This document shows, piece after piece, positions 10,506 to 11,238 of a stretch of 64,000 bases of DNA. The notes under the pieces are model-generated. The model ran no database searches. It was not told the DNA's origin and saw nothing but the letters and a program-made list of their open reading frames with translations. Both the position numbers and the translations under genes were made by a program. The stretch lies in the sequence record PV714129.1. The stretch is one strand, 5' to 3'. Position 1 is the stretch's first letter, and the number at the start of each line of letters is the position of its first letter. Source of the DNA: Escherichia phage Mizar.

Positions 10506-10581
10506 TGGTGCCTCTAGAAAGATTTGAACTCTCACCATTAACCTTAGAACGATTATATGCTATCCATTACACTATAGAGGC
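10506..10581 (-). tRNA. tRNA-Arg (anticodon UCU)
   Basis: Manual fold: 7-bp acceptor stem GCCTCTA/TAGAGGC, anticodon loop GTTCTAA, T-arm GAGAG-TTCAAAT-CTTTC, discriminator A, encoded CCA. Confidence 0.75.
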
Positions 10582-11238
10582 AATTAAATTATTTACAATA
10601 TCTTCTTTATAAACTTCAGCATAATGAAGTTCGTATATTTCCCATCCTAATGATTTTATAATATCATGGCGTTCTTTATAATAAGGGGCCAAAATCTTTT
10701 TCTTAGGATTGGAGTAATGTTGGTTTCCATTAACTTCAATAATAATCTTTTTATCTATTAAAGCAATATCCGTGCAATACGCTCGGTTTTTAACCGGTTG
10801 GTATTCTTCAATAAATGAAATTCCGTTTTCTATTAATTTAGATTTCAAAAATTCACAAGGCACAGATTTAAATTTTGTATTTTTCTTCCAAGGATGTTTA
10901 TCGGGGTTTTCATTCAACCATTTTTTCCGAGCATTAGATATTTTTATTCTAGATTCCTCAGAGTGTTCTCTACCTAATGAAGCGGCTGACAATTTTTGTC
11001 TAGTCTCTTCCGAAATTACTACAGGAACACCAGTCTTTTTAGATACAACATACTGGTTTAAATTACCTGAAGCTATACGTGCTTTATTCATTGCTGCAAT
11101 GGCTGATTTAGAACTTTCTTTATACAATTCCAATTTAGGGTTGGATTTACACCATCTAGTGTGGTTAGCCATCCATCCTTTAGGTTTATTAGAAATATCA
11201 AATTCCATATTACAATGTTTACAAATGCTCATTACCAA
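10567..11238 (-). CDS. putative homing endonuclease (Zn-finger N-terminus, NUMOD3-like repeats, Vsr/DUF559-like PD-(D/E)xK C-terminal domain)
   Basis: CKHC...HTRWC; repeated S-x-E-x-R-x-K-(L/I)S motifs; C-terminal DIALIDKKIIIEVNGNQH pattern; sits inside the tRNA cluster as T4 segB does. Confidence 0.5.
   Translation of the reverse strand: MVMSICKHCNMEFDISNKPKGWMANHTRWCKSNPKLELYKESSKSAIAAMNKARIASGNLNQYVVSKKTGVPVVISEETRQKLSAASLGREHSEESRIKISNARKKWLNENPDKHPWKKNTKFKSVPCEFLKSKLIENGISFIEEYQPVKNRAYCTDIALIDKKIIIEVNGNQHYSNPKKKILAPYYKERHDIIKSLGWEIYELHYAEVYKEDIVNNLIASIV

Follow-up and report, generated by a model that had tools for sequence, protein, structure and literature searches.

The DNA analysed here is a 64,000-nucleotide stretch from Escherichia phage Mizar (sequence record PV714129.1; hereafter the window), and our subject is a gene for a putative homing endonuclease in its tRNA cluster. 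On the minus strand, which carries all window features given below, the order is a tRNA with anticodon CAT (11459..11385; Met according to ARAGORN), tRNA-Asn(GTT) (11378..11307; ARAGORN, Rfam 53.6 bits), a 74-nt spacer, the endonuclease open reading frame (ORF), which ends at 10567, and tRNA-Arg(TCT) (10581..10506; ARAGORN, Rfam 56.3 bits), whose limits were placed at 10506/10509..10581 by ARAGORN and Rfam. All three tRNAs scored above the Rfam tRNA threshold in a scan of 9800..12100. The gene lies inside the tRNA cluster and overlaps the 5′ end of tRNA-Arg, as an earlier note on this DNA had claimed, with its stop codon (TAA, 10569..10567) 15 nt within the tRNA; the overlap (10567..10581) comprises the last four sense codons and the stop, in the 5′ acceptor and D-arm. 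The 223-aa ORF given in that note (10567..11238) exists, but its product is likely shorter: the TTG at 11238, chosen by the ORF finder, is not conserved among homologues, whereas the ATG at 11232 and the following MSICKHC are. Since this start, with MSICKHC, is shared by all homologues, a product of 221 aa (10567..11232, including the stop) is the most likely one. The ratios of nonsynonymous to synonymous substitution rates were 0.06-0.08 among the three variants from E. coli phages and 0.1-0.4 for pairs at greater distance; for the window gene itself, they were 0.06-0.08 against its two closest variants and 0.17-0.32 against remoter homologues. The gene is therefore maintained by purifying selection as a protein-coding gene.

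The position of the gene can be compared with that of segB in T4, where the order is tRNA-Thr, tRNA-Ile, segB, tRNA-Arg, rnaD, and rnaC. In the window, tRNA(CAT), tRNA-Asn, the endonuclease gene, and tRNA-Arg are followed by a small ORF and by homologues of rnaD and rnaC, and in the Tequatrovirus ELT1, which has the same gene, the order is Gln-Leu-Gly-Pro-Ser-Thr-(CAT)-Asn-gene-Arg. Judged by the T4 and ELT1 gene orders, tRNA(CAT) corresponds in position to T4 tRNA-Ile, which places the gene in the segB slot. The claim that its nuclease class differs from that of the GIY-YIG Seg protein T4 carries here held up, as the window protein has no Pfam match to GIY-YIG and no similarity to SegB (BLASTP against T4 SegB, E > 2).

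A search of 5.8 billion proteins found 131 homologues, which share a strongly conserved C-terminal part of ~115 residues (NPDKHPWK…SVPCE…EEY…DIA…IEVNGNQHY…YYxxR…GW), while their N-terminal modules vary (one or two C2HC fingers, HTH, or MerR); as read from the sequences, swapped N-terminal modules on a conserved core are a build typical of homing endonucleases. An AlphaFold2 model of the window protein, made with 40 homologues as input (predicted local distance difference test score, pLDDT, 89), begins with a beta-beta-alpha finger (residues 2-26), continues with a helical region, and from residue 121 forms an alpha/beta domain. The N-terminal Cys/His segment reported in the earlier note corresponds to a C2HC zinc-finger-like module (residues 4-29, 11146..11223; pLDDT >90) with a conserved C-x2-C...H-x3-C pattern, whose residues C4, C7, H25, and C29 are conserved in the homologues having this domain; zf-C2H2 matches were obtained for 2 homologues. 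The NUMOD3-like repeats are both present as S-E-E-x-R-x-K-[LI]-S (residues 75-83 and 92-100) in the helical region (residues 74-104, 10921..11013), and 8 of the 40 homologues match NUMOD3 (PF07460) at E<0.01 (best E 6.6e-6), but the window protein itself scored 18.9 bits, below the Pfam cut-off of 20.4. Thus, the protein has a separate N-terminal DNA-binding region of a zinc finger and two NUMOD3-like repeats.

The C-terminal domain (residues 121-221, 10570..10872) has the Vsr/DUF559 fold, with E127, D155, E166, N168, H172, Y184, Y185, and R188 conserved. Profile search detected a nuclease domain in it, as DUF559 (PF04480) scored 21.4 bits, above the Pfam cut-off of 20.6, and 17/40 homologues match the family at E<0.01. 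The PHROGs matches comprised unnamed families and families annotated as homing endonuclease, and an NCBIfam search of the protein gave no match. In public databases, the gene is either listed as a hypothetical protein or an HNH endonuclease (two GenBank entries for homologues) or lacks an annotation; we found no HNH family among the Pfam matches up to E 10, the structural matches are of the Vsr fold, and no paper describing this gene was found in the literature. The present assignment corrects these labels. Searches of the PDB by sequence, with the single protein and with the full-length profile, gave nothing meaningful; in Foldseek and structure comparisons of the model, the top structural match was 3r3p (I-Bth0305I). 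The active site of that enzyme consists of E170, D196, N208, H213, and D222 (Taylor 2011, PMC3239194), the first three of which align with E127, D155, and N168 of the window protein; H172 is invariant but stands one residue before the H213 position, which is the DUF559 spacing. The 40 aligned sequences share nine residues without exception (K112, H113, W115, E143, D155, E166, N168, G169, and H172), and the pair Y184/Y185 is conserved at 90% or more. An extra conserved Glu has been noted in Vsr-like homing endonucleases (Dassa 2009, PMC2677866), and the invariant Glu of IEVNG in the window protein matches it. Since the fold and most of the motif agree, the modelled protein belongs to the Vsr-like/EDxHD/DUF559 assemblage; the DUF559/Vsr pattern described in the earlier note is retained in this sense, but its last defining Asp is missing.

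The same matches bear on a different function, namely that of a RAP-like RNA-binding protein or an RNA nuclease whose targets would be the phage tRNA precursor or the tRNAs of the host, in which case it would not be a DNA homing endonuclease. As many as 36/40 homologues match RAP (PF08373) at E<0.01, yet the window protein scored 23.9 bits, below the Pfam cut-off of 24.2, and RAP, Vsr, and DUF559 share one fold, within which the top structural match is a DNA homing endonuclease. Zinc fingers and NUMOD3 are DNA-binding modules typical of homing endonucleases (PMC2677866, PMC3239194), the sporadic distribution and cross-genus transfer described below suit a selfish gene, and the homologues of 63% and 42% identity lie outside tRNA clusters, near T4 30.3-like and DsbA/SegE-like genes. 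We consider this RNA-directed function very improbable.

The genomic context was then compared across related phages. The window flanks are 95-98% identical to Mosigvirus genomes, and ~790 phage records match them, 9 of which span the whole region. By tblastn, 11 E. coli-phage records (~1.4% of the ~790 related records) encode the protein with an identity of at least 79%. In the commonest Mosigvirus allele (represented by LF82-41), tRNA(CAT) is followed after 3 nt by a different, native tRNA-Arg of ~75 bp, which was found in about 202 records; tRNA-Asn and the endonuclease gene are absent from this allele. Homology with it ends at 11384 and 10509, and these breakpoints, together with the identity to ELT1, delimit a cassette (10506..11384) of tRNA-Asn, the 5′ untranslated region (UTR) with a hairpin, the endonuclease gene, and a tRNA-Arg that, by tRNA-Arg type alignment, is of the T4 type and not the native Mosigvirus one. 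The tRNA(CAT) gene lies outside the cassette as a conserved left homology arm, and its sequence is identical between alleles with and without the endonuclease. The slot was also found filled by a SegB orthologue (76% identity to T4 SegB) in the Mosigvirus p000v, which has no tRNA-Arg there, and SegB homologues occurred in about 150 records; thus, the allele states of the slot include empty, SegB-occupied, deleted, and frameshifted. In vB_EcoM_G8 and AV120, a native Mosigvirus-type tRNA-Arg stands beside a gene annotated as "group I intron endonuclease" or "homing endonuclease", which are further alleles of this hotspot.

The cassette is 99.4-99.7% identical in 9 records, and its identity changes sharply at its ends. 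Between the window and ELT1, 875 of 879 cassette positions are identical (99.4-100% per segment), while the adjacent ORFs are only 74-84% identical; between the window and HY126, which also has the endonuclease, the corresponding values are 99.5-100% and 90-97%, so that the window flanks are nearer to the endonuclease-less LF82-41 (95-98%) than to HY126. The presence of the same ~880-bp block in different genomic backgrounds requires recent horizontal transfer with short conversion tracts, and these comparisons show that the block (tRNA-Asn, gene, and T4-type tRNA-Arg) has recently moved between phage genera. The gene is mobile, as the earlier note had suspected, but the mobile unit is larger than the gene and includes two tRNAs. 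The opposite pattern, i.e., the gene at the same site in all relatives with no sign of mobility, was not found, given its presence in 11 of ~790 records and the identity steps.

The region upstream of the gene suggests how its expression may be controlled. The palindrome reported in the earlier note is exact (CTCCTATA-ttt-TATAGGAG, 11261..11243), and its 3′ arm carries the GGAG Shine-Dalgarno (SD) sequence. It is the innermost of three nested helices in a 64-nt region (11223..11286) that folds at -18.3 kcal/mol (z = -4.1; 0/200 shuffles as stable): the inner stem (11261..11254 with 11250..11243) pairs the SD, the middle stem joins 11275..11272 with 11238..11235, and the outer stem (11286..11279 with 11230..11223) pairs the G of AUG and codons 2-3. 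Nine 5′ regions were folded, the window included, and the same nested architecture was found in the 8 homologues (z -2.7 to -7.5), with stem sequences that differ by clade (GUGCUC/GAGCAU in enterobacterial phages and AUGAAGU/ACUUCAU in Acinetobacter phages). Because the Rfam E-value scan of 9800..12100 gave the three tRNAs only, the hairpin belongs to no known cis-regulatory family.

A perfect copy of the T4 late-promoter box TATAAATA lies directly 5′ of, or overlaps, the 5′ arm of the hairpin in 9/11 homologous loci, in which the 3′ arm holds the SD and an outer helix usually also pairs the AUG region. This placement is not due to chance, since the motif occurs at only ~1.4e-4 per position in the window. 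The window-type cassette reads TAATAAATA, in which the best 8-mer is AATAAATA (11269..11262), a 7/8 match directly 5′ of the inner hairpin. T4 late transcripts start ~6 nt downstream of the promoter box; at this distance, the outer arm and the greater part of the inner 5′ arm would be missing from late transcripts. Translational control of the T4 I-TevI type, as the earlier note proposed, is thus favoured by the conserved hairpin over the SD and AUG and by the promoter in most relatives, but the box in the window is imperfect. An I-TevI-style operator, i.e., a copy of the target over the promoter, was rejected, as local alignment of the 5′ UTR with the native tRNA-Met/tRNA-Arg region gave a best score of 10, compared to a mean of 8.0 (standard deviation 1.2) and a maximum of 12 for shuffles. 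In a scan for sigma-70 promoters, the number of sites was not above chance. At the other end of the gene, the ORF stops inside tRNA-Arg, and an RNase P cut at 10581/10582 would remove four codons and the stop from the processed transcript.

Overall, these data support the interpretation of the earlier note, and we hold it to be likely, with considerable confidence, that the locus is a mobile Vsr-like homing endonuclease-tRNA cassette in the tRNA-Ile(CAU)/tRNA-Arg slot of a Mosigvirus-like T-even phage. Several points weigh against this view. The nuclease-domain profile matched 3r3p weakly (E 0.07), and hhalign probabilities were within 60-70% (70% against full-length I-Bth0305I and 64% against a T4-like Hef, represented by the annotated Hef-like protein of Shigella phage vB_SdyM_006); sequence-level links to solved EDxHD members are weak, and the fold assignment therefore rests on structure comparison. 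In these alignments (60-70% probability), the position of I-Bth0305I D222 and Vsr D97 is taken by Y184/Y185, and no conserved acidic residue was found near this pair, as E187 and D190 are not conserved in the family; with Tyr at the final Asp position, catalysis may differ or be impaired. The late promoter of the window copy may be weakened, because its box is AATAAATA and not TATAAATA, which makes late expression uncertain. The cassette stands between conserved tRNA sequences, so ordinary homologous recombination could move it without an endonuclease. Finally, cleavage activity, target site, and homing are predictions for the whole clade.

Some of these points would equally fit a dead or decaying endonuclease remnant in a cassette whose spread reflects ordinary recombination at the tRNA flanks or selection for the tRNAs it carries. 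Recombination is frequent in T-even phages, and besides the Tyr at the last EDxHD/Vsr catalytic position and the imperfect promoter box, broken copies of the gene exist. In PTE-Eco05, an extra A in an A-run (~11041) shifts the frame after about codon 65, which is either a pseudogene or a homopolymer sequencing error, and G2285 carries a deletion derivative in which tRNA-Asn and the 5′ UTR with the hairpin are retained as far as 11236, whereas 11235..10170 are gone, and with them the gene, tRNA-Arg, and the greater part of the ORF downstream. The G2285 junction (locus 2640..2649; 11236 joined to 10169) has an overlap of ~10 nt, which suggests microhomology. A decaying gene is, however, hard to reconcile with strong purifying selection across homologues down to 50% identity, with nine residues including D155 and H172 invariant in 40/40 sequences, with the high conservation of the Tyr pair itself (>=90%), or with a cassette that is near-identical across genera and has very sharp boundaries.

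The deletion in G2285 and the frameshift in PTE-Eco05 can equally be read as signs of a homing life cycle, and a further sign was found in DCP548, which, like one metagenomic contig, has a 79%-identical variant of the gene. In both, the tRNA-Arg (locus ~2152..2230 in either case) is chimeric: its 5′ two-thirds are of the cassette type, its 3′ third is of the native Mosigvirus type, and the two parts meet near the variable loop. No acceptor stem can form, and ARAGORN did not call this tRNA. Such a chimera is the product expected of a gene-conversion end-point inside tRNA-Arg, as expected in turn from double-strand-break repair, and it probably records a homing event in which the tRNA-Arg of the recipient was destroyed. 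Considering both sides, we regard a dead remnant as improbable.

Homologues of 50-65% identity occupy the tRNA clusters of several T4-like phages. The order is Leu-gene-Arg in Klebsiella and Enterobacter phages, with the ORF ending 15 or 24 nt inside tRNA-Arg, Arg-gene-Lys in a Providencia phage, and Asn-gene-Ser in an Acinetobacter phage. The overlap of 15 or 24 nt is conserved in the E. coli- and Klebsiella-phage homologues. Moreover, the 63% homologue (metagenomic contig P0007, beside the T4 30.3-like gene) ends in a diverged remnant of ~30 nt of the tRNA-Arg 5′ part (2150..2185), which implies that the gene moved to an ectopic site together with part of the tRNA. These observations suggest that the ancestor of the enterobacterial clade already had the ORF fused to tRNA-Arg and that the fusion travelled with the gene. 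On another metagenomic contig (P0010, 502..1155), a second ORF of 217 aa with a faint NUMOD3 match directly precedes the homologue within the tRNA cluster and may encode another homing endonuclease. In the Serratia phage Muldoon, which has no endonuclease gene here, 14 nt (TGTAAATAATTTAA, ~2001..2015) abutting the 5′ end of a T4-type tRNA-Arg recur without change at the 3′ end of the window endonuclease ORF; they could be left over from a lost endonuclease gene or represent a tRNA leader common to both phages. The ORF upstream of the Muldoon tRNA-Arg was tested as an endonuclease remnant and proved unrelated.

If the cassette is indeed a homing element, we propose that in a mixed infection the enzyme would cut the allele that lacks the cassette, either within or close to the native tRNA-Arg or at the tRNA(CAT)/tRNA-Arg junction; this predicted target is the sole stretch differing between donor and recipient. 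Recombinational repair would then copy the cassette in, using as arms the conserved tRNA(CAT) and the 3′ end of tRNA-Arg or the downstream ORF, and the donor would be immune through its differing tRNA-Arg sequence. Early and middle read-through transcripts of the tRNA precursor would be translationally silent owing to the hairpin, while late transcripts, which would start inside the 5′ arm, would have the SD exposed. Maturation of tRNA-Arg by RNase P would deprive the mRNA of its stop and the four codons before it and thus limit expression further.

Much of this arrangement recalls segB, for which the slot with a hairpin and the idea of processing at the stop codon and tRNA-Arg have been described (PMC2330249, PMC2988022); its stop abuts the tRNA-Arg processing site, and Brok-Volchanskaya et al. 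proposed RNase P-type control (PMC2330249). Both genes lie between tRNA-Ile(CAU) and tRNA-Arg, encode 221 aa with NUMOD3-type motifs, have a hairpin over the SD and AUG and a stop at or inside the 5′ processing site of tRNA-Arg, and are transcribed within the tRNA precursor. However, their catalytic domains are unrelated, without sequence similarity, and the domain order is reversed, the nuclease being C-terminal in the window protein; in addition, a late promoter of consensus sequence stands at the hairpin in relatives of the window gene, but near the segB 5′ end none was mapped (PMC2330249) and only a predicted one is reported (PMC2988022). The SegB core motif is GGTTCRANTCC, and the preferred SegB site in T2L lies in tRNA-Asn (PMC2330249), a tRNA that the window cassette carries. 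The motif is present in the cassette tRNA-Asn (GGTTCGAGTCC, 11318..11328), which makes the window allele a plausible SegB target, and also in rnaC. It was not found in the cassette tRNA-Arg, whose T-arm (10520..10540) is degenerate (AGTTCAAATCT), perhaps as a result of escape from SegB; in the PSD2001 variant, tRNA-Arg retains GGTTCGAGTCC. The window-type endonuclease and SegB probably compete for the slot. This situation is similar to replacements in T-even phages, mobE/hef and mobC/segH, which are attributed to Sandegren et al., as cited in PMC3239194 and bioRxiv 10.1101/2022.08.31.505936.

Among Vsr-like enzymes, Hef is known from T-even phages (PMC3239194), and Vsr-like homing endonucleases carry 5′ hairpins (PMC2677866). 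The window protein shares with I-Bth0305I and Hef (EDxHD) a C-terminal Vsr-fold nuclease, for which 3r3p is the best structural match, the conserved E, D, N, and IEVNG Glu at aligned positions, a modular N-terminal DNA-binding region with NUMOD motifs, and a sporadic occurrence as free-standing phage genes with a 5′ hairpin. It differs in that its His comes 4 residues after the Asn (NGNQH, as in DUF559) instead of 5 (NGVYWH), its N-terminus has a C2HC finger and NUMOD3-like repeats instead of NUMOD2/HTH, and its gene lies in a tRNA cluster and not in an intron, an intein, or nrd genes; BLAST against the Hef-like protein of a T4-like phage found no similarity. DUF559 proteins (PF04480, e.g., NGO0050, 3hrl) are mostly single-domain bacterial proteins with no shown mobility, and their DG and YD are NG and YY in the window protein. 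In its expression control, the locus resembles I-TevI, I-TevII, I-TevIII, segB, and Aeh1 mobE, which have a late promoter and a ribosome-binding-site hairpin (PMC2988022): for the three I-Tev genes and Aeh1 MobE, the likeness is a hairpin that sequesters the ribosome-binding site on read-through transcripts and a late promoter placed to skip the 5′ arm. The window arrangement is, unlike theirs, predicted from sequence, with a 7/8 promoter box and no operator-like target copy over the promoter.

The tRNA cargo raises further possibilities. The cassette might act as a mutualistic module that targets the tRNA-Arg regions of rival T-even phages and installs its own tRNAs, with the overlap as a switch, escape from host defence, and a variant active site; as a joint proposal, we find this rather doubtful. 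Its tRNA-Asn and T4-type tRNA-Arg could be installed in rival genomes; the overlap could make RNase P maturation of tRNA-Arg and translation of the endonuclease mutually exclusive on each transcript; the cargo tRNAs, or their endonuclease-driven amplification, could, by analogy, help escape tRNA-cleaving host defences; and Tyr for the third catalytic Asp could define a distinct catalytic subclass of Vsr-like homing endonucleases. A related alternative takes the protein to be a domesticated nuclease that serves the phage, e.g., in amplifying or exchanging tRNA genes against tRNA-targeting defences, with homing as a secondary effect. The cassette always brings tRNA cargo (Asn and Arg), and SegB at the same slot amplifies tRNA loci and thereby escapes Septu (PMC13096335). 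Yet, the gene is rare (~1.4% of the related E. coli-phage records) and readily lost or broken, its arrival in DCP548 destroyed tRNA-Arg, and service to the phage would be compatible with homing; domestication therefore seems highly unlikely to us as the primary role.

Vsr-like homing endonucleases, free-standing endonuclease genes in T-even tRNA clusters, and control by late promoters and hairpins are already known. What is noteworthy in the cassette reading is the convergence with segB, the carriage and breakage of tRNA genes, and the active site with Tyr for Asp. After mobE/hef and mobC/segH, this would be the third T-even case of two unrelated endonuclease classes in one slot, and the two appear to have converged on a ribosome-binding-site hairpin, co-transcription with the tRNAs in one precursor, and a stop codon where tRNA-Arg is processed. 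Homing would be able to carry tRNA genes between phage genera and to break a recipient tRNA, and the homologues form a large uncharacterised subclade of Vsr-like endonucleases with Tyr at the normally catalytic Asp position. The practical value is modest, namely a candidate site-specific nuclease and a marker-exclusion locus relevant to T-even phage cocktails.

Several neighbouring features complete the locus. The small ORF downstream of tRNA-Arg (10143..10538, listed with 131 aa) overlaps this tRNA, and a start at the ATG near 10488, giving ~115 aa, is favoured by relatives and by an SD (GAGGAAAATATG); the ORF is absent in PSD2001 and mostly deleted in G2285. Farther downstream, the homologues of rnaD (10028..10146, 85% identity to T4) and rnaC (9882..10020, 97.8% identity to T4) have no matching Rfam family. 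The rnaC homologue contains a T-loop-like GGTTCAAATCC at 9894..9904, and a third exact match to the T-loop/SegB core, likewise GGTTCAAATCC, lies at 36841..36851, far from the predicted tRNAs.

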